Source of the DNA: a virus
Lineage: Duplodnaviria > Heunggongvirae > Uroviricota > Caudoviricetes
DNA length: 7,001 nucleotides
Virus record (IMG/VR): IMGVR_UViG_2563366974_000011
Location: 1 to 7,001 of that record
Direction: 5' to 3' (one strand)
The notes under the pieces were generated by a model. That model did no database searches and was not told the DNA's origin. It saw only the letters and a list, made by a program, of their open reading frames with translations. The translations under genes and the position numbers were made by a program. This document shows, piece by piece, positions 1-7,001 of this stretch; position 1 is the first letter of the stretch; each line of letters starts with the position of its first letter.

Positions 1-288
1 TTAACGGATCAACATCCAGATCAGCAGACACGCCACCACCGGCACAGCAAAATCCATCAGGCTTGCCACATCCCACGCGCGCGGATCAAAACCGCCCCAC
101 CACGGCATATTCATTCGCTTGCCATGCCCGAACATTTCAATCCAGCGATATTCTGCCTGGGTATGTTCACGCGCAATGAAGAACGTACAACCGGCTATCG
201 CTCCGTAAGCCCAGTTTCCGGTAAAAAGACCAACCAGTACCTGCGCAGCCACAGCACAAAGTGCATGAAGGAAAGGTGTTATATCCAT
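1..288 (-). CDS. Hypothetical small inner-membrane protein (95 aa, 2-3 predicted TM helices)
   Basis: ATG 286-288 preceded by AAAGGAGG. Hydrophobic segments at residues ~6-39 and ~74-95 flank an aromatic/charged loop (EYRWIEMFGHGKRMNMPWWGGFDPRAWD). TAA stop at 1-3, so the ORF is complete. No family recognised by eye. Confidence 0.6.
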   Translation of the reverse strand: MDITPFLHALCAVAAQVLVGLFTGNWAYGAIAGCTFFIAREHTQAEYRWIEMFGHGKRMNMPWWGGFDPRAWDVASLMDFAVPVVACLLIWMLIR

Positions 289-298
289 TACGCCTCCT

Positions 299-1003
299 TT
301 ATCCGATATCGCTTCGGGAAACGGATAACAACTTTAATTCTGACTCAAGTTCATCAACTCTTTCAGTCAGCTTCTGGATATGGTGAATCAGTGGAACAAC
401 CAGACGTTCGTACATTACACCTTCGGCAACAAGGCCATTGCTGGAAATGGTTTCCGGTGCATCATCTTCGTTGGCTGGTCGCCAGTGAACAAACTGAGGG
501 GCAATTTCTCCTACTTCCTCGGCAATCAATCCATAGAATCCCCAGTCACGCCTGTCATTTTCGCATTGCGACCTGTACCACACAGGGCGCATCCTGAAAA
601 TGAGATCGGCGTGCTCTGAATCTATCGTCTCTACTGAATGTTTATAGCGGATAGACGATGTTGACCGCAGCACAGACGAAATTGCAGGGTCAGGATTAAG
701 ATAAAGATTTGCCGCCGCTGTAGTTGTGCCCAATCCCCATAAATAAAACGCTTCACGGCCAGTCAGCGGGTAAAAATCTCCGCCATAACGACCACTTTCC
801 AGATCGTTCACTTCCACTTTGTTTTTCAGCTTATTATCCACTTCTGTTTTTGTGTATCTGGTACTGATATCCTGCTTTGCACTGTCCATATCAGTCTGAA
901 GCGTTGATACTTTTACGTTAATTGAGGAAATATCTTCCTTTGCCTTACTGACATCTCCCTTTAGCGTTTTGATGTCATCAGGAATTACTGTCGATGTAGC
1001 CAT
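299..1003 (-). CDS. Small fibre-like protein (234 aa): N-terminal coiled-coil segment plus C-terminal Peptidase_S74-like intramolecular chaperone domain
   Basis: ATG 1001-1003 preceded by GAGGAAG that overlaps the upstream TGA. Residues ~117-225 (SIRYKHSVETIDSEHADLIFRMRPVWYRSQCENDRRDWGFYGLIAEEVGEIAPQF...GLVAEGVMYERLVVPLIHHIQKLTERVDELESEL) follow the S74 pattern recalled from endosialidase and T5 L-shaped fibre C-termini. Residues ~10-70 are heptad-like and K/D/E-rich. Confidence 0.7.
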   Translation of the reverse strand: MATSTVIPDDIKTLKGDVSKAKEDISSINVKVSTLQTDMDSAKQDISTRYTKTEVDNKLKNKVEVNDLESGRYGGDFYPLTGREAFYLWGLGTTTAAANLYLNPDPAISSVLRSTSSIRYKHSVETIDSEHADLIFRMRPVWYRSQCENDRRDWGFYGLIAEEVGEIAPQFVHWRPANEDDAPETISSNGLVAEGVMYERLVVPLIHHIQKLTERVDELESELKLLSVSRSDIG

Positions 1004-1012
1004 TTTTCTTCC

Positions 1013-1294
1013 TCACATCCAGCTACGGAGTTGATGCTCAACAGCAACCGCGTGTTCATCGAATAATGACGATATTTGCGAATCATTAATGATGCGCACA
1101 TTTACAAAATATCCGTCCTCCTTAACACATACCGGCTCGCCATCTTCAGTCAGTTCTCCGGTTTCTTTGTACACATTACCTATCACGTCAATAAGAATAT
1201 CATCCTGCATCGACTCGTCATCATAATAGCCAATGCTCTCCATAAAGGCCGAAAAGTCGGCCCTGTCGACAAATTTGAGTGTTAAATCTTTCAT
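1013..1294 (-). CDS. Hypothetical small strongly acidic protein (93 aa), unknown function; translationally coupled to the fibre-tip frame
   Basis: ATG 1292-1294 overlaps the upstream TAA by 1 nt, with GGGGGAG about 8 nt upstream. About 21 Asp/Glu against 7 Lys/Arg. No signal peptide or TM segment. No family recognised by eye. TGA stop at 1013-1015. Confidence 0.6.
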   Translation of the reverse strand: MKDLTLKFVDRADFSAFMESIGYYDDESMQDDILIDVIGNVYKETGELTEDGEPVCVKEDGYFVNVRIINDSQISSLFDEHAVAVEHQLRSWM

Positions 1295-2043
1295 TAGATT
1301 AACTCCCCCACCTGAGCATCAGTCAATGCCTTGTGCCATATTCTGAAATTCCTGACATGACCAAATAAATGGCGTAAACCGGCTGTAGTCTGGCCTCCAA
1401 TACGGATAATTGCGGAGTTCTGAATACAGGACCATGTGGTTTTTGTTTCGCTGGATATACGCCCGTTACTTACTGCGCATGTAGACTGATCTGACTTTAC
1501 ACGCATCCCCATAACCATTTTTTCAAGCGATGCATTTTCGTTTATCCGCCTGTTAGCCCCACCAATATCGCAATAAGGAAATCCGTCGTAATCTGCTGAA
1601 GAACCGAAGCCAAGAATAATAGCCGCTCCGGTTTGATGACCGCCGGTATCAAAAACACGCGGTGCTGCATTTGGCGTTTTATACCAGTTCTTATGTACCT
1701 CACAAAGAACCGTAAAAGGTAGATTATAAAGATTATTCTTAATTGGGACTGTAACTATATCGCTTGCCCGCGTTCCTGCAGCTACCCCCGTAACAATAAA
1801 AGATGATGCGCCTGTTCCACCTTCAACCTGGGGAGTTGCGACATCCAGATAGTCTCCAGATGCTGTACTTTAACCTGTTACAGGAGCATACTGAACGAAC
1901 GCACCAACCGTGTTCTCTGTTGTTTCTGCATTAATTGTAGCCTCAAAAAAAATCCAGCCAGTAGCATCATCTTTTACAGCCCTTGCAATAATACGGTTTG
2001 TATCAGCTCCCGTTCTATCAATTCGGAGGGTTAATTTAATGCG
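1294..2043 (-). pseudogene. Start-less 3' portion of a tail-fibre gene encoding a LamG/concanavalin-A-like (jelly-roll lectin) receptor-binding tip; in frame with stf but cut off by stops
   Basis: Hand translation gives a 249-codon stop-free frame: RIKLTLRIDRTGADTNRIIARAVKDDATGWIFFEATINAE...GHVRNFRIWHKALTDAQVGELI*. It has no in-frame ATG/GTG/TTG until MVMGMR at 1516-1518 (the 74-aa track ORF). The C-terminal motif resembles the LamG consensus. Same phase (mod 3) as stf. Its TAA stop overlaps the next gene's ATG (TAATG). Confidence 0.55.
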
Positions 2044-2160
2044 TTATGTTTCTCTTAATGACGTTACAGCACCATCATAATGGTGTTCAAATATTAGACG
2101 ATACATTTTATCATCATCACTTTTTCCCAGACGGCATATAATGATAACCTATTCTTCCTC
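2044..2160 (-). other. AT-rich stop-dense junction separating the stf ORF from the in-frame fibre-tip remnant; possible recombination scar and/or internal promoter
   Basis: Hand translation of the minus strand: stops in the stf frame at 2161 (TGA), 2149 (TAG) and 2044 (TAA); three consecutive TGA in a second frame at 2111-2119; TAA at 2094 in the third frame. Holds a 20-codon ORF (MYRLIFEHHYDGAVTSLRET) and a -10-like TAATAT. Confidence 0.6.
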
Positions 2161-3672
2161 TCAAGTGACAACACATCCGGTACTGCCAGACAGCGCTACA
2201 ATGGTAAGAGCTTTACTCTTACCAACAAGCGTATCTTTTACAATAAATCTGCCATAAGTAAAACTGAAAGTATCTGTGCCTGTTTCTGTAACGTCCAGTG
2301 AAGTTGACTTATTCCACTTCGAAGGGTCTGTACTGTTAGGGAGAAGGTTCGTTCTTTGCCCCTCAATAAGCAGGCCATCACGTTCAAATCGTGGCTCGTC
2401 AATGGTAGCCTCTGTCAGCACACCAGATTTATTAATGTAAGTTGCTTTTGATGCGCGTTTAAACTTAACCACCTTGTCACCAGGCATCGTTATTTCGTCG
2501 TCACCAATAACAATCTTTTTATAAGATGGCGAAAAGCCCGTAATCATATCCAGTGAATCGTTAAACGGTATCCACACATCAGGCAGCGGCTGTAAGACAT
2601 ATTTATACGGATCTGCTGCCTGGCTTGCATACTCTCTGGCTGCGTCTTCACTTGCTTTTGCAGCGGTCTGGCTTGCAGCGGATGCTTTCGCCGAGTTCGC
2701 CGCTGCAGTCTCGCTTGTCTTTGCATTGGTTTCACTGGTTTTTGCTGCTTTTTGACTGTTGGCTGATGCAGTGGCAGAAGCAGCCGCCGCGCTTGCAGAA
2801 CCAGCTGCAGCACTCTCGCTTTGGGCTGCTGCATCCTGACTGTTTTTCGCCGCAGTTTCGCTGGCTTTGGCATTCGTTTCGCTGGTCTTCGCTGCCGTCT
2901 GGCTGGACTTTGCGTTAGTTTCACTCGTCTTCGCAGCTTTCTGGCTGTTAGCCGCAGCAGTTGCTGATCCAGCTGCTGAAGTCGCAGAACCGGCTGCCGC
3001 GCTCTCGCTTTGGGCTGCTGCAACCTGGCTGTTTTTTGCCGCAGTTTCACTGGCTTTGGCATTCGTTTCGCTTGTTTTCGCTGCCGTCTGGCTGGACTTT
3101 GCGTTGGTTTCGCTCGTCTTTGCGGCTGTCTCGCTATTTTTCGCGTTGGTTTCTGATTTTTTGGCTGCTGTCGCGGAGTTTGCCGATGCAGTCTTTGAGG
3201 TCGCTGCCGCCTGTGCACTATTAGCTGCATTCGTTTCTGAGGTTTTCGCCGCGTTCTTTGATGATGCCGCTGCAGTTTCGGATTTCTTTGCCGCCGCTGC
3301 GCTCTGAGAGGCGGCTTCGGCGTTGCGTGCCACTTCTTCCACCATTGCCTCAAAACGACGCAATGCCTCCGGCATGACATCATCTTCCGTCATGGCACCG
3401 AGAAAATCATTCAGCGTACCTGGTCTGGAACCTTCATAGACGGTAATGGTTCCGGCATGTGAAGGCGGAAAACCTTCAACCAGCAGGGTGACGCTGTACT
3501 GGCCATACTCAACATCCATGCTGTAACGCCCGGCTTCATCCGGATTTTCAGAGGCCACCGTGTTCACCAGTACCGTGGTGCTGTTACGCTTTGCCTTCAG
3601 TTGAATAGTGCAGTTCTGTATTGGTTTTCCCGCACCATCTTTCAGCACACCTGAGATTTTTACTGCTGCCAT
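2161..3672 (-). CDS. stf: Side tail fibre protein Stf, N-terminal tail-attachment domain plus Ala/Ser/Thr-rich repeat shaft (503 aa from ATG 3670-3672); terminates prematurely relative to the downstream in-frame fibre-tip remnant
   Basis: The ORF track starts at GTG 3676-3678, but the ATG two codons later has GGAG with a 5-nt spacer and gives MAAVKISGVLKDGAGKPIQNCTIQLKAKRNSTT..., matching the lambda/StfR N-terminus as I recall it. Contains long SETNAK/AAKTSE repeats. TGA stop at 2161-2163. Confidence 0.85.
   Translation of the reverse strand: MAAVKISGVLKDGAGKPIQNCTIQLKAKRNSTTVLVNTVASENPDEAGRYSMDVEYGQYSVTLLVEGFPPSHAGTITVYEGSRPGTLNDFLGAMTEDDVMPEALRRFEAMVEEVARNAEAASQSAAAAKKSETAAASSKNAAKTSETNAANSAQAAATSKTASANSATAAKKSETNAKNSETAAKTSETNAKSSQTAAKTSETNAKASETAAKNSQVAAAQSESAAAGSATSAAGSATAAANSQKAAKTSETNAKSSQTAAKTSETNAKASETAAKNSQDAAAQSESAAAGSASAAAASATASANSQKAAKTSETNAKTSETAAANSAKASAASQTAAKASEDAAREYASQAADPYKYVLQPLPDVWIPFNDSLDMITGFSPSYKKIVIGDDEITMPGDKVVKFKRASKATYINKSGVLTEATIDEPRFERDGLLIEGQRTNLLPNSTDPSKWNKSTSLDVTETGTDTFSFTYGRFIVKDTLVGKSKALTIVALSGSTGCVVT
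2813..3190. repeat. Two tandem 189-bp (63-codon) direct repeats inside stf, with nested ~21-bp sub-repeats and degenerate partial copies on both sides
   Basis: Anchor ctctcgctttgggctgctgca occurs at 2813 and 3002. Anchor ctggctttggcattcgtttcgct occurs at 2861 and 3050. Both give a 189-bp period. The protein shows AAKTSETNAKSSQTAAKTSETNAKASETAAKNSQ.AAAQSESAAAGSA... twice. Confidence 0.85.
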
Positions 3673-3682
3673 ATCCACTCCA

Positions 3683-3710
3683 CAAAAAAGCCCGCCTGAA
3701 CCGGCGGGCT
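3683..3710 (-). terminator. Rho-independent terminator downstream of lom, immediately upstream of the stf RBS
   Basis: Minus-strand read: AGCCCGCC-GGTTCA-GGCGGGCT, a perfect 8-bp GC stem (plus 3689-3710), followed by TTTTTTGTG. The stf Shine-Dalgarno GGAG begins 3 nt after the T-tract. Confidence 0.78.
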
Positions 3711-3736
3711 GTCATAACACTGTGTTACCTGGCTAA

Positions 3737-4336
3737 TCAGAATTTATAACCGACACCCACGATGAAACCGTCAGTGCGCCAGTCGCCACTGCCGGAGCCT
3801 TCATAAGCAATATCAATGGCCACGGATTCGGTCGGGTTAAACTGCACGCCAGCTCCCCACGCCAGAGACGTGTTGCTGTGGCGATCGTCATCACTTCCGG
3901 TCAGCACATCGTGCGTTTTCCCCTTGTTGTCAGTTACGCGGAGATAATCCCCGGAGAACGTCGAAACACGGCTGTAAGCCACACCTGCCATCGCATAAGC
4001 ACTGAACCATTCATTCACGCGTACAGATGGCCCCGCCATCATGCTGAACCAGCGGTTACGCACTGAATCTTCATGCCAGCGGGTATCGCTGTAATGCGTT
4101 TTTTGCTCATCTTTGGCATTGGCATAACTGAATGACGTCACCAGCCCCAGCGTGTCCGTAAATTCATAACGGTATTTCACGTTAATGCCCTTCAGGTCAT
4201 CACTGCCTGGCATATCAGTATGGGTCTGAAGATACCCGGCGCTTAGTGTGGACTGATGCTCTGCTGCGCTCGCTGGCGTACCAGCGGCAACCAGCCAGAC
4301 TACTGCGGACAGAATAACAGCACATAATTTACGCAT
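3737..4336 (-). CDS. lom: Outer-membrane protein Lom (Ail/Lom/OmpX-family beta-barrel), 199 aa
   Basis: ATG at 4334-4336 with GAGAGG 6 nt upstream. N-terminal signal peptide MRKLCAVILSAVVWLVAAGTPASA|AE. C-terminal ...AIDIAYEGSGSGDWRTDGFIVGVGYKF ends in an aromatic residue as OM beta-barrels do and matches lambda Lom as I recall it. Position between J and stf as in lambda. Confidence 0.93.
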   Translation of the reverse strand: MRKLCAVILSAVVWLVAAGTPASAAEHQSTLSAGYLQTHTDMPGSDDLKGINVKYRYEFTDTLGLVTSFSYANAKDEQKTHYSDTRWHEDSVRNRWFSMMAGPSVRVNEWFSAYAMAGVAYSRVSTFSGDYLRVTDNKGKTHDVLTGSDDDRHSNTSLAWGAGVQFNPTESVAIDIAYEGSGSGDWRTDGFIVGVGYKF

Positions 4337-4360
4337 AATTACCTCTCGCTTTTCTGCAAT

Positions 4361-4385
4361 AAAAAAGGCACCATTTCTGGTGCCC
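4361..4385 (-). terminator. Rho-independent terminator downstream of J
   Basis: Minus-strand read: GGCACCA-GAAA-TGGTGCC hairpin (plus 4367-4384) followed directly by TTTTTTATTG (plus A-run 4361-4366). It lies between the J stop (4404) and the lom RBS GAGAGG. Confidence 0.7.
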
Positions 4386-4403
4386 GTATCTGGGTTATAA
4401 AAT

Positions 4404-7001
4404 TCAGCTAATCGTGATGCCTGCAGTGGCTTTCTTCATCACAACAACCAGCAAATCGCTGATACTTGCTGTGGGATACCAGCCATTTACCAGCCATGCT
4501 GACACCGAAAACTCCAGTGTCATGTGACCGTGACCGGCAGGCATATCAATAACGCCACTGTAAATCAGCGTATTATCCAGCGCGGTACGGTTATAAATTT
4601 CAGCACCGTTTTTCCGCACTATCAGACGGCATGAGGAGTAAATATCAGTATGCTCTCTCTCATGCTTAGCGCCACTGAATGCCACAGCCGGAATAACAAT
4701 TTGCCGGTCAAACGGCTGATCGTCATAAACCCTGACGGTAATGGTCCCTGATGGCCACCGCTCCGGTGCCCGGGAGTCACGGGGGAAAGCTTTGCCCACT
4801 GTTTTAACGAGATCGCCTTCAATCTGGTTCGCGGACAGTTTTCCCAGAACCCGGCAGTTCTCGTTAATCGTGACGTTGTTGAGCGTCCCGGAGTTCGCAT
4901 TCACGTTACCGCTGATATCGGCATTTTTCGCCGTCAGCCGCCCGTCCGGTGTCAGGGAAAATGCCGGAGGATTACCGCCGCTGGTAATGGTCGGAGCCGT
5001 CAGGCGTTTCAGGAACACGTCGTTCATGAATATCTGGTTGCCCTGCGCCACAAACATCGGCGTTTCATTCCCGTTTGCCGGGTCAATAAACGCGATACGG
5101 TTAGCGGCAACCAGGAACTGGCTCAGTTTGCCTTCCTCCGTATCCTCCATGCTGAGGCCAAGCCCCGCGACATAATGTTTGCCGTCTTTGGTCTGCTCAA
5201 TTTTGACGCCCCACATGGCATTCCATTTATCGTTGGCGTCCTTCCACTCTTTCGAAAACTCCTCCAGTTTGCTGGCGTTATCTTCCGTCAGCTCAAAGTT
5301 TTCCAGCAGTTCCTTGCCGAGATGCGTTTTATTGATCAACCCTTTATAAAAATTCAGATAACCTTCCGCATCATCGCTCGCCCGACCAACGGCCTCCACA
5401 AATGCCGATTTACCAACGGTGTTCACGCTGCGGATATAAAAGTAATAATCATAACCCGGCTTAATATTGCTACTGGCGGCTATCCAGTACAGCGCCGTAC
5501 CAAGATAACGCGCGCTGGTTTCAACCTGCCTGATATCGATAATCCGCTTTTCCGAGAACCAGAACTCAAACTGCACCGTCGGGTCATATACAGCCAGTTT
5601 CGGGACCGCTGTTATCTGAAAATACCCTGGTATCAGTTCAATAGTGACAGGCGCTGCCGGTGCCGCAATCCGGAACGATACCGATGCCGGATCGCCCTGC
5701 TGCCCCCACGCATTTACCGCCCGGACCGTCAGCGTGTAACGCCCCAGCGCCAGTTGCCTGAAGCGGTATGTGGTTTCCGTCGTCCGGGCCATGCTGACCA
5801 GCCGCTCACTGCCGTCGTCCGCTGCCACGGTAAGGCGAAGCAGGAAGCTCACGCCCTTCACCACCTTCGGCGTGTCCCATCGCGCCAGCACCTGATATTC
5901 CCCGCTGTCTGCGGTGACTTCGGCGGTCAGGTGCTGCACCGCTGGCGGCGTGACACCATTCACCGTGCCGCTCTGGTCGCCGTCAAAGTGCGCCCCGTTA
6001 TCCACGATGGCTTCTTTTTCCGGTACATGCTGCACGGCGGTGATGGCATACGTACCGTCATCGTTCTCCCGGATACTCACACAGCGGAACAGGCGCTGGC
6101 GCAGCGTCGGCAGCTTCAGCCCCCATACGCTGTATTCAGCAACACCGTCAGGAACACGGCTCACTTTTACCTTCACGCCGTCGGTGACGGACTGAACCTC
6201 CACGCTGACCGGATTGCCACTTCCGTCAACCAGGCTTATCAGCGTGGTACCGGAGGATGGCAGCGTGATTTCACGGTCGAGCGTCAGCGTCCGGGTCTGG
6301 CTGTTCACCGCCAGCACACGACCACCGGTGCTGATACCGGCATAGTCATCATCACAGATTTCAATGACATCGCCCGGTACATGGCGAAGCCCTTCTGCGC
6401 CCACGCTGAAGTCCACGGTCTGCGTTTCCAGCAGTTCCGTTTTAATCAGCCACAGCCCGGCGCGGTGTGCCTGCCCCCGGCTGGTACAGCCAAAGGCATC
6501 CATCTTCGTGACGTTACGACCGTAACGGGCAATGGCCTGCGTATCTTCAACAAGCTCTGTCGCCGTCTCCCAGCCGTTGTTCGGGTCAATCCAGTTCACC
6601 TCAACGGCATTATGGCGGTCCTTCAGGGCGCTGAAGCTGTAGCGGAACGGCGCGCCATCATCCGGCATCACCACATTACTGCGGTTATAGGTCCACACCT
6701 TATCTGATGGTCGGTCCTGCACGAACGTCAGCGTCTGCCCGTTCCATACCGGCATACAGCGCATCGCCGAGCAGAAATCACTGAGAACATCCCACGCCTT
6801 GCGCTGTGTGGTCAGGCAGGCATTACAGGTGATGCGCGGCTCCGTGCCACCAAAGCCATCCGGCACCGACTGGTCGCAATTCTGGCCGATGACATACAGC
6901 GCCCATTTGTCCACATCCGCCGCACCGAGACGCTTCCCCATGCCGTAGCGCGGATGGGTCAGCATATCCCACAGACACCAGGCCATGTTGTTGCTGTATG
7001 C
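4404..7001 (-). CDS. J: Host specificity protein J (tail tip / central tail fibre), C-terminal ~865 codons; 5' end lies beyond the window
   Basis: The ORF track gives an 860-aa minus ORF 4404-6986 from an internal Met. The frame stays open up to the window edge (codons above 6986 read ..AYSNN with no stop). TGA stop at 4404-4406. Sits immediately upstream of lom as in lambda. Very long, GC-rich; assignment is by recall of the J family, not a search. Confidence 0.9.

Follow-up and report, generated by a model that had tools for sequence, protein, structure and literature searches.

Among the closest described systems are lateral tail fibres in which one protein carries another. In DT57C, LtfB is attached via LtfA and pfam13884 occurs in both proteins (PMC4728585); in the branched, L-shaped tail fibres of the T5-like phages DT57C and DT571/2, LtfA and LtfB each end in a self-cleaving domain of this family, and LtfB is held on LtfA through a short stretch at its N-terminus (PMC4728585, PMC10713586), as we propose below for the protein studied here. 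In IrisVonRoten (Bas32, Tequintavirus), Gp24, a T-shaped protein of 574 aa with a Gp12-like RBD1 and a T5-like RBD2, has been modelled as a distal fibre on the proximal Gp22, which has a galectin-like C-terminal head; the attachment of Gp24 to Gp22 is an AF-Multimer prediction and not an experimental result (PMC11990801). From BASEL phage fibres, proteins combining a coiled-coil N-terminus with a C-terminal peptidase S74 domain have been defined as RBPseg class TC7, and the accompanying UniProt survey left out proteins shorter than 300 aa and any named 'chaperone' (PMC12143355), filters that would leave out the family of small S74 proteins described here. In the lambdoid late operon, the assembly proteins of the lambda Stf/Tfa and Mu types are likewise encoded downstream of the side tail fibre gene.

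Here we describe a small S74 protein encoded in a window of 7,001 nucleotides (positions 1 to 7,001 of the IMG/VR record IMGVR_UViG_2563366974_000011), in which a Stf-like side tail fibre gene is followed by genes for a 93-residue protein (p93), a 234-residue protein with an S74 domain (the S74 protein) and a 95-residue protein (p95). Coordinates are collected in Table 1. The S74 protein is 100% identical to WP_000235967.1 ('tail fiber domain-containing protein', E. coli MLI109). The gene order and spacing of the first three genes equal those of Gp22-Gp23-Gp24 of IrisVonRoten, and the likeness extends to each product: Gp22 is 52% identical to the MLI109 Stf over 761 aa, C-terminal lectin-type head included; Gp23 is 39% identical to p93 (E = 2e-25); and the tip and chaperone regions of Gp24 are 27% identical to the S74 protein over 144 aa (E = 1e-7). 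The putative anchor of Gp24 also aligns with that of the S74 protein at the same position, in a short match of 11 identical residues among 28 (pairwise E = 0.008), and the two share an N-terminus of the form M-x-T-K/S-T-V-I-P-x-D-I-x-x-L-K. Unlike Gp24, the window protein lacks RBD1 and has a tip of only ~50 residues. Neither Pfam searches nor alignment with Gp24 gave a collar or Gp12-like match; with this result and only 115 residues ahead of the predicted cleavage site, we regard it as a reduced variant rather than a T-shaped fibre. The proximal fibres differ at the N-terminus, which is of the lambdoid PF08400 type in the window and of the T5 type in IrisVonRoten.

Table 1. Features of the S74 protein, its gene and the neighbouring genes (positions in the 7,001-nucleotide window)
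Feature	Position	Strand	Basis or comment
S74 mini-fibre gene	299..1003	-	234 aa, stop codon included; Pfam PF13884
Shine-Dalgarno GAGGAAG of the S74 gene	1008..1014	-	overlaps the TGA stop of the 93-aa gene
Putative N-terminal docking peptide, residues 1 to ~25, MATSTVIPDDIKTLKGDVSK...	929..1003	-	common to all alleles at the gene position
Predicted coiled-coil stalk, residues 8-65, ~eight heptads	809..982	-	AF2 helix 9-60, periodicity
Tip segment, residues 66-115, SGRYGGDFYPLTGREAFYLWGLGTTTAAANLYLNPDPAISSVLRST	659..808	-	putative distal end of the mature fibre
Predicted autocleavage/catalytic motif S116-S-I-R-Y-K121	641..658	-	Ser116 = 656-658, Lys121 = 641-643
Intramolecular chaperone (S74) domain and C-terminal helix, residues 116-234	302..658	-	Pfam, AF2, Foldseek
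p93, 93-aa acidic protein, pI 4.1	1013..1294	-	phrog_1361; start overlaps stf stop (TAATG)
Proximal side tail fibre gene (Stf-like)	1294..3678	-	PF08400 N-terminus, Ala/Ser-rich repeats, C-terminal ConA/LamG-type lectin head
p95, 95-aa small membrane protein, last operon gene	1..288	-	phrog_1443; two hydrophobic segments

The resemblance to other systems is more partial. The proximal fibre of DT57C has its own S74 domain whereas that of the window ends in a lectin-type head, and a p93-like gene has not been reported for the DT57C system. With the LtfB anchor there was no detectable similarity, and tblastn searches with the N-terminus of the S74 protein matched only lambdoid, T1-like and 9g-like phages. 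The T5-like L-shaped fibre chain 8hqz_d (1076 aa) shares with the window protein both an S74 region and a shaft repeat, and the likeness to class TC7 is one of overall architecture and not a claim of homology with RBP_13 or RBP_33. Unlike the lambda Stf/Tfa arrangement, the fibre tip in the window is a lectin-type head and not gp37-like, the third protein carries a chaperone domain that would act in cis, and Pfam and NCBIfam found no match to Tfa or Caudo_TAP in the cassette.

The presence of a Peptidase_S74-like domain, proposed in a preliminary description made from the DNA sequence, was borne out by Pfam: PF13884 matched residues 116-172 (E = 4.6e-6) over profile positions 1-57 of 58, with 27.3 bits against a gathering cut-off of 22 bits. 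A phmmer search of PDB sequences retrieved the C-terminal chaperone region of the 8hqz_d chain (E = 5.3e-7), and a HMMER search of 1.84 billion representatives with the S74 protein gave 1,607 matches at E <= 1e-10. The AF2 model has pLDDT values of 75-87 over residues 130-230 and a helix at 198-231. When this model was submitted to Foldseek, the MyRF ICA domain (7dc3) ranked first (E = 1.4e-5, probability 1.00); matches to phage chaperone domains were weak (3gud, E = 0.045; 3gw6, E = 0.055) because the AF2 model is a monomer. The predicted catalytic pair, Ser116 and Lys121, sits in RSTS|SIRYKH, and the Pfam domain begins exactly at the predicted cleavage serine. All 31 aligned homologues, which are 27-95% identical to the query, have both residues. 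The expected dyad was found within a few bases of the anticipated nt 650-665 (STSS, 653-664; IRYKH, 638-652). The chaperone domains of endosialidase and T5 have the same S-x4-K spacing (see PMC4728585). Ser-x4-Lys, a C-terminal position and a terminal helix are features that the window protein has in common with endosialidase K1F, GA-1 gp12, T5 pb1 (PF13884, MEROPS S74) and the MyRF ICA domain; those domains end spikes and long fibres of ~800-1400 residues, whereas in the window protein 115 residues precede the cut. Cleavage at Ser116 would yield products of 12.6 kDa (residues 1-115) and 13.8 kDa (residues 116-234), close to the ~12 and ~13 kDa estimated beforehand; the computed mass of an uncleaved S116A form is 26.3 kDa. 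The S74 domain is predicted to be released after the trimer has folded.

The 115 residues ahead of the domain agree with the earlier estimate of their length and with its description of them as coiled-coil-like: AF2 predicts the helix at 9-60, and the hydrophobic periodicity of the stalk peaks at 3.5 residues. In an alignment of the 31 homologues, the sequences differ within the stalk by insertions and deletions. The stalk ends in a fibre-shaft repeat, DISTRYTKTEVDNKL, that aligns with the DIATTYTKTEVDSAL shaft repeats of chain 8hqz_d. Confidence in the AF2 model is low over the tip (pLDDT 29-45); in the same alignment N99 is invariant and T94 nearly so. The tip aligns with the stretch that precedes the cleavage site in IrisVonRoten Gp24, and residues 49-234 recur, at 52-61% identity, as the C-terminal module of fibres of 539-1243 aa. 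Because these residues form the terminal module of long fibres, the tip is likely to be a genuine fibre end.

At the opposite end, the N-terminal peptide MATSTVIPDDIKTLK is common to alleles of 234-574 aa occupying the third-gene position, after which they diverge; the first ~20 residues are shared by alleles of 234, 294, 343, 351 and 574 aa and by KarlBarth gp30. The longer alleles have fibre-type domains inserted ahead of their own S74 domain. In tblastn searches, 61 phage records had the peptide at residue 1 of the gene that follows the p93 homologue and 43 had a T5-like version of it; the N-termini of phrog_4563 and phrog_19752 match it too. Receptor-binding subunits exchanged on a conserved anchor show this pattern, and we infer a docking role for the peptide.

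The preliminary description had called the protein stand-alone, which is misleading because its gene always stands third in a fibre cassette of three genes. The order lectin-headed side fibre, p93, S74 gene is seen in lambdoid phages, Drexlerviridae, Queuovirinae and T5-like phages, and in 87 of 87 loci the third gene is preceded by p93. p93, an obligate companion of the lectin-headed fibre, probably acts as an adaptor or assembly factor for it; the AF2 model of p93 (pLDDT 39.6) was too low in confidence for use. The Stf matches the Pfam family phage_tail_N (E = 2.5e-67) and, over its last 74 aa, Laminin_G_3; within phrog_1419 it matches profile positions 1-499 and 720-793. All 20 full-length C-terminal variants recovered keep its ending, ...IGGQ..G.RHLFGH.RN.RIWHK.LTD.Q.... 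The Shine-Dalgarno sequence of p95, AAGGAGG, overlaps the stop of the S74 gene, and p95 follows that gene in 78 of 80 loci. In phage 21 it stands directly after p93 and is annotated as a membrane protein with two TMDs; p95 is probably a moron, outside the fibre. NCBIfam gave no match for the S74 protein, p93 or p95. The T1-type phages SH6 and Sfin-1 have a single S74 fibre of 559-594 aa instead.

We consider it moderately probable that the S74 gene encodes the distal subunit of a side (lateral) tail fibre made of two parts, in the smallest allelic form known. Three chains would assemble with the aid of their own C-terminal intramolecular chaperone domain, and Ser116 together with Lys121 would then cut each chain to free the chaperone fragment. 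The mature chains would remain as a short trimer composed of the docking peptide, a coiled coil of about eight heptads and the tip. The docking peptide would fix this stub to the lectin-headed proximal fibre, possibly with the 93-aa protein as an adaptor or assembly factor, and the virion would in consequence display a second, conserved tip, putatively receptor-binding, beside the variable lectin head. The mini-fibre reading of the preliminary description is supported in this form. Within lambdoid prophages, mean identity is 87% for the small S74 protein versus 51% for the Stf head, which is unusual for a specificity determinant and could mean a structural role instead of receptor binding. It seems distinctly unlikely that the mature stub is a minimal plug that stabilises or masks the docking site of the lectin fibre, or that the S74 domain is a temporary cap delaying activation, as has been proposed for a chaperone cap in Alteromonas phage fibres (PMC10579305); if so, the protein would be the smallest fibre module in nature that processes itself, and its function would be regulatory, not adhesive.

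Among explanations that place the protein outside a two-part fibre, we judge it unlikely that it forms an independent short fibre or decoration attached elsewhere, at the tail tip, tube, collar or head. The S74 protein is conserved while the C-terminal half of Stf is freely swapped, and it gives weak PHROG matches to 'minor head protein' families, as such a reading would have it; these matches, however, span only the chaperone domain or the coiled coil, and gene context lends a decoration protein no support. The gene moreover travels only with the lectin-headed fibre C-terminus and p93, across unrelated tails and fibre N-termini (PF08400 in the lambdoid carriers; attachment through an LtfC collar in T1-like, 9g-like and T5-like ones), so that the docking site would most simply lie on the shared part. 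A chaperone acting in trans on the proximal fibre, and absent from virions, is quite improbable to our minds, even though the gene occupies, downstream of the fibre gene, the place of tfa in lambda, the cassette is without a recognised Tfa-type gene, and 'putative lateral tail fiber chaperone' is the annotation used in the BASEL genomes PeterMerian, KarlJaspers and VogelGryff. Phage 21 and many lambda-like recombinant phages have a homologous fibre, p93 and p95 and no third gene, and the fibre would thus fold without the S74 protein; similarly, the p93 family occurs in 181 phage records, as against the ~61 with the anchor of the S74 protein and the 43 with its T5-like version. The sequence of the S74 protein does not covary with the fibre head (Spearman rho 0.09, versus 0.34 for p93; pairs are non-independent and these values indicative only), and the other alleles found at its position are complete fibres that have additional domains and an S74 domain of their own. 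To our knowledge, all characterised S74 domains work in cis, on their own chain. The database annotation 'lateral tail fiber chaperone' is probably wrong.

Two further readings bear on whether the ORF has a function in the virion at all. The gene (ATG at 1003-1001, TAA at 301-299, minus strand) encodes a real, conserved phage protein under purifying selection: in 80 related loci the ORF is intact in 79, at a length of 227-241 aa, and pN/pS is 0.16 overall, with the gene minimum in the chaperone domain (0.076) and a value of 0.125 in the tip. It is present in 983 of 5,426 complete E. coli genomes (18%) and common in E. coli prophages; isolated lambdoid, T1-like and 9g-like phages, virulent ones included, encode it at 221-269 aa, and the protein clusters that contain it have 2,928 and 650 members. 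Such prevalence, and the prior description of class TC7 (PMC12143355), indicate that the architecture was overstated when first called unusual. In the wider family, 14 of the top 150 cluster representatives are 151-270 aa long, several of which may be fragments. That the gene is a non-functional ORF, or what is left of a longer S74 fibre in decay, is scarcely credible on this record, and the suggestion that the protein is a surviving piece of a larger fibre was not upheld. The best PHROG family profile does extend over 1385 positions, of which only 1147-1384 were matched, and the same C-terminal module occurs in long fibres, two of which end in an identical ...KLTERVDELESELKLLSVSRSDIG. Start codon and Shine-Dalgarno sequence are nevertheless conserved across loci, as is the gap of 9 nt after p93, equal in IrisVonRoten gp23/gp24 and in the IMG/VR loci; plaque-forming virulent phages carry the gene; and its N-terminus is no truncation point but a conserved module. 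A factor for lysogenic conversion or exclusion, expressed with p95, whose released fragment or stub could block a receptor, is very improbable as well. The gene does lie at the prophage end, in a region that in lambdoid phages often holds morons such as lom, and adjoins the gene for the small membrane protein p95, to which it is translationally linked; yet the same gene occurs without p95 in strictly virulent Drexlerviridae and Queuovirinae, PADLOC found no match, the minus strand has no promoter-like site within 1-4500, and the S74 protein has neither a signal peptide nor a transmembrane segment.

A system of this kind has already been described, and current concepts are unchanged by the present example; full-text searches of the published literature found no experimental work on the small S74 protein. 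If the distal-subunit model is right, the protein would be a very compact natural case of chaperone-assisted fibre folding, with 234 residues of which 115 are mature, and a convenient minimal system for learning how an S74 domain first templates a trimer and then cleaves it. The N-terminal peptide of ~20 residues would then mark a docking interface of lambdoid, T1-like, 9g-like, Dhillonvirus and T5-like phages, one that could serve to swap distal receptor-binding modules between phages.

The stf gene of the window is interrupted by four in-frame stops, a break in the proximal fibre that would weigh against the distal-subunit model for this window, and an exact 41-mer across two of them was absent from the searched collection of genome contigs. 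True pseudogenisation was rejected as the main cause, since successive SNPs of the segment switch back and forth between two natural alleles. A diversity-generating retroelement behind the divergent stf segment was likewise rejected, since that segment, 700 nt in length, has a flat substitution spectrum with no adenine bias. The four stops are probably an assembly artefact; the copy in MLI109 is intact at 792 aa.

The window lies in a lambdoid prophage of E. coli and covers the distal end of its late operon, with every gene on the - strand. The closest complete genome, that of E. coli MLI109, has the same gene order, adjoining yodB/zinT, is identical to the window except in 1700-3100, and annotates the 234-residue product considered here (the S74 protein) as "tail fiber domain-containing protein" (WP_000235967.1).

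Genes of the window and their positions
Feature	Position	Strand	Remark
J	4404-6986	-	cut by window end
lom	3737-4336	-	
Stf-like side tail fibre gene (stf)	1294-3678	-	
p93 gene	1013-1294	-	93 aa
S74 gene	299-1003	-	234-aa ORF
p95 gene	1-288	-	95-aa membrane protein

Self-cleaving S74 domains on fibres have already been described, and assignment of one to this ORF, proposed in the preliminary description, stands up to scrutiny. Residues 116-172 match Pfam PF13884 over the whole profile (27.3 bits; cut-off 22), and the expected Ser/Lys dyad is present as S116 and K121, both invariant in a 31-sequence alignment. The computed products of the predicted cut before Ser116, 12.6 kDa and 13.8 kDa, agree with the earlier estimate of ~12 plus ~13 kDa, and the part described as coiled-coil-like comprises about eight heptads, with the strongest periodicity at 3.5 residues. 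Searched against PDB sequences with phmmer, the protein matched the chaperone end of 8hqz_d, a 1076-aa L-shaped tail fibre chain (E = 5.3e-7), to which its shaft repeat also aligned (DISTRYTKTEVDNKL versus DIATTYTKTEVDSAL). An AF2 model computed from a 31-sequence input (mean pLDDT 63.8) has a helix over residues 9-60, little defined structure over 58-119 and, over 120-231, a confidently modelled alpha/beta domain with a terminal helix; Foldseek matched this model to the MyRF ICA domain 7dc3 (E = 1.4e-5), followed by the phage chaperone domains 3gud and 3gw6.

The ORF is a real and common gene. Protein searches yielded clusters of 2,928 and 650 members, with close full-length relatives of 221-269 aa, and the gene occurs in 983 of 5,426 complete E. 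coli genomes, in up to five copies per genome, as well as in 62 phage records that include virulent Drexlerviridae. It is intact, at 227-241 aa, in 79 of 80 IMG/VR loci, and its pN/pS is 0.16 (pairwise, 35 distinct sequences), with the lowest values in the chaperone domain, at 0.076, and over the 50 residues preceding the cut, at 0.125. The gene lies 9 nt downstream of the p93 stop and has its own Shine-Dalgarno sequence. Given this and its abundance, integrity and constraint, we reject the suggestion that it is a relic of a larger fibre.

Nor does the gene stand alone genomically, as had been supposed: it is the third of a cassette, following genes for a lectin-headed fibre and a homologue of p93. 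The same order recurs in the lambdoid phages PhiR49_1, PhiR47_1 and HannyBb, in Drexlerviridae (PeterMerian), in Queuovirinae (ESCO3), and in the T5-like phages VSe12 and IrisVonRoten, with p93 upstream of the third gene at 87 of 87 loci examined. Alleles at the third position encode 234, 294, 343, 351 or 574 aa, to which KarlBarth gp30 is added; all have in common the N-terminus M-[AV]-T-[SKV]-T-[VN]-I-P-x-D-I-x-x-L-K, after which their bodies differ, those of 343 and 351 aa bearing a ~200-residue domain with gp34-like fibre motifs and then a canonical SDRDLK S74 domain. Such a conserved N-terminus with exchangeable bodies is the hallmark of receptor-binding subunits docking on a common partner. 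Residues 49-234 of the S74 protein recur, at 52-61% identity, as the terminal module of fibres of 539-1243 aa, so that the tip (residues 66-115, preceding the cut) is a genuine fibre end swapped between architectures. The long fibres P0186 (588 aa) and P0187 (958 aa) share their C-terminal tail, exactly or almost exactly, with the 234-aa protein (...KLTERVDELESELKLLSVSRSDIG), indicating that long fibres and the mini-fibre have recently exchanged the chaperone module.

Two of these loci depart from their annotation or from the common plan. In Salmonella phage VSe12 (locus L088, ~4289-6018) an ATG encoding MVTKTVIPTDITKLK lies just 3' of the p93 homologue and upstream of the annotated gp088 start, and gp089 (80 aa) comprises only the C-terminal half of an S74 domain; the distal fibre gene of that record thus seems either mis-annotated or broken. 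In the Dhillonvirus KarlBarth (locus L089, 3770-4649) the gene after the p93 homologue opens with the common anchor (MVTKTNIPADITALK), after which the coding sequence runs on in two overlapping ORFs (98 and 196 aa), in which no S74 motif was evident by eye and which may represent a different distal module without a chaperone.

The lateral tail fibre cassette of IrisVonRoten, Gp22-Gp23-Gp24, corresponds to this arrangement gene by gene: Gp22 is 52% identical to the intact MLI109 Stf over 761 aa, Gp23 is 39% identical to p93, and Gp24 resembles the S74 protein in the pre-cleavage tip and chaperone domain (27% over 144 aa, E = 1e-7) and in the N-terminal anchor (11 of 28 residues, a short similarity that is one weak point of the mechanism proposed below). 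Humolli et al. (2025) modelled Gp24 as a T-shaped distal fibre with a Gp12-like RBD1, a T5-like RBD2 and an intramolecular chaperone domain, its attachment to the proximal fibre Gp22, whose C-terminus bears a galectin-like domain, being predicted (PMC11990801). The S74 protein is a reduced counterpart, having the anchor, coiled coil, short T5-like tip and chaperone domain but lacking RBD1. Two-protein lateral fibres were described before in DT57C (LtfA/LtfB; PMC4728585) and IrisVonRoten (PMC11990801), as was structural class TC7, with a coiled-coil N-terminus and C-terminal S74 domain (PMC12143355), and the S74 gene already carries RefSeq annotation; new here are the placement of the small protein as the minimal allele of the distal subunit, the docking peptide common to five phage groups, and the case against a trans-chaperone role.

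That role is implied by the annotation of BASEL genomes, in which the protein is a "putative lateral tail fiber chaperone" acting on the fibre in trans. Homologues of p93, however, follow lectin-headed fibres in 181 phage records (lambdoid, T1-like, 9g-like, Dhillonvirus, T5-like and phages with ~136-kb genomes), whereas the third-gene anchor was found in only ~61 and its T5-like version in 43; and in phage 21, a classical lambdoid phage that forms plaques, the fibre, p93 and p95 occur without the third gene, so the fibre does not need the S74 protein. Across 56 distinct gene triples the C-terminal 150 residues of Stf are highly variable (mean 51% identity) and co-vary with p93 (rho 0.34) but barely with the third gene (rho 0.09), values that are indicative only, the pairs being non-independent. 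A fibre-specific assembly factor or adaptor is more plausibly sought in p93, an acidic protein (pI 4.1) whose start codon overlaps the fibre stop (TAATG), which had no Pfam or NCBIfam family, and for which AF2 gave no usable fold (pLDDT 39.6).

For the S74 protein as distal subunit we propose a mechanism that builds on what is shown here, namely the domain with its Ser/Lys pair, the selective constraint on the gene, the cassette, the modularity of its alleles and the homology to Gp22-Gp24. Three chains would trimerise via the chaperone domain, Ser116/Lys121 would cleave the chain, and the 13.8-kDa fragment would depart; the 3 x 12.6-kDa stub would be held by residues 1-25 on the distal portion of the proximal fibre, either by direct contact or through p93. 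The conserved tip would touch a conserved surface structure, the variable Stf lectin head dealing with variable glycans.

The window's stf contains four in-frame stops on the - strand (TGA 2161-2163, TAG 2149-2151, TAA 2044-2046 and TAA 1870-1872), all inside a segment 84% identical to its best E. coli genome match between flanks of ~100%. Two natural alleles, A (MLI109 type) and B (L046 type), share 63.5% identity, and across 1785-2290 the window alternates between them almost SNP by SNP, two of the four stops mixing A and B bases within one codon. Recombination would be expected to leave long tracts; this mosaic, together with multiple cassette copies per genome, makes a collapsed-assembly consensus, not a true pseudogene, the most likely source of the stops. 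The S74 gene, lying in the conserved flank, is unaffected. Upstream of ~2300, stf matches allele B at many variant sites in succession before switching to allele A, as in an ordinary recombination tract. A 189-nt tandem repeat (2701-3135, - strand; 2.3 copies, 83% matches) encodes the Ala/Ser/Thr/Lys-rich Stf stalk.

The p95 protein (phrog_1443) contains two hydrophobic stretches, and the Shine-Dalgarno sequence of its gene overlaps the S74 gene stop. Of 80 prophage loci, 78 have p95 next after the S74 gene; in phage 21 it comes directly after p93, and the virulent phages lack it. Located at the end of the prophage, it may be a moron or encode an exclusion protein. Immediately 3' of lom (3689-3710) and of J (4366-4385), the - strand has terminator-like hairpins with T-runs, so that transcription of stf, p93, the S74 gene and p95 would require read-through, as expected of Q-antiterminated late operons. 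A search of the - strand within 1-4500 gave no promoter-like site. A 510-aa ORF antisense to J (5175-6707, + strand) is probably a by-product of J codon composition.
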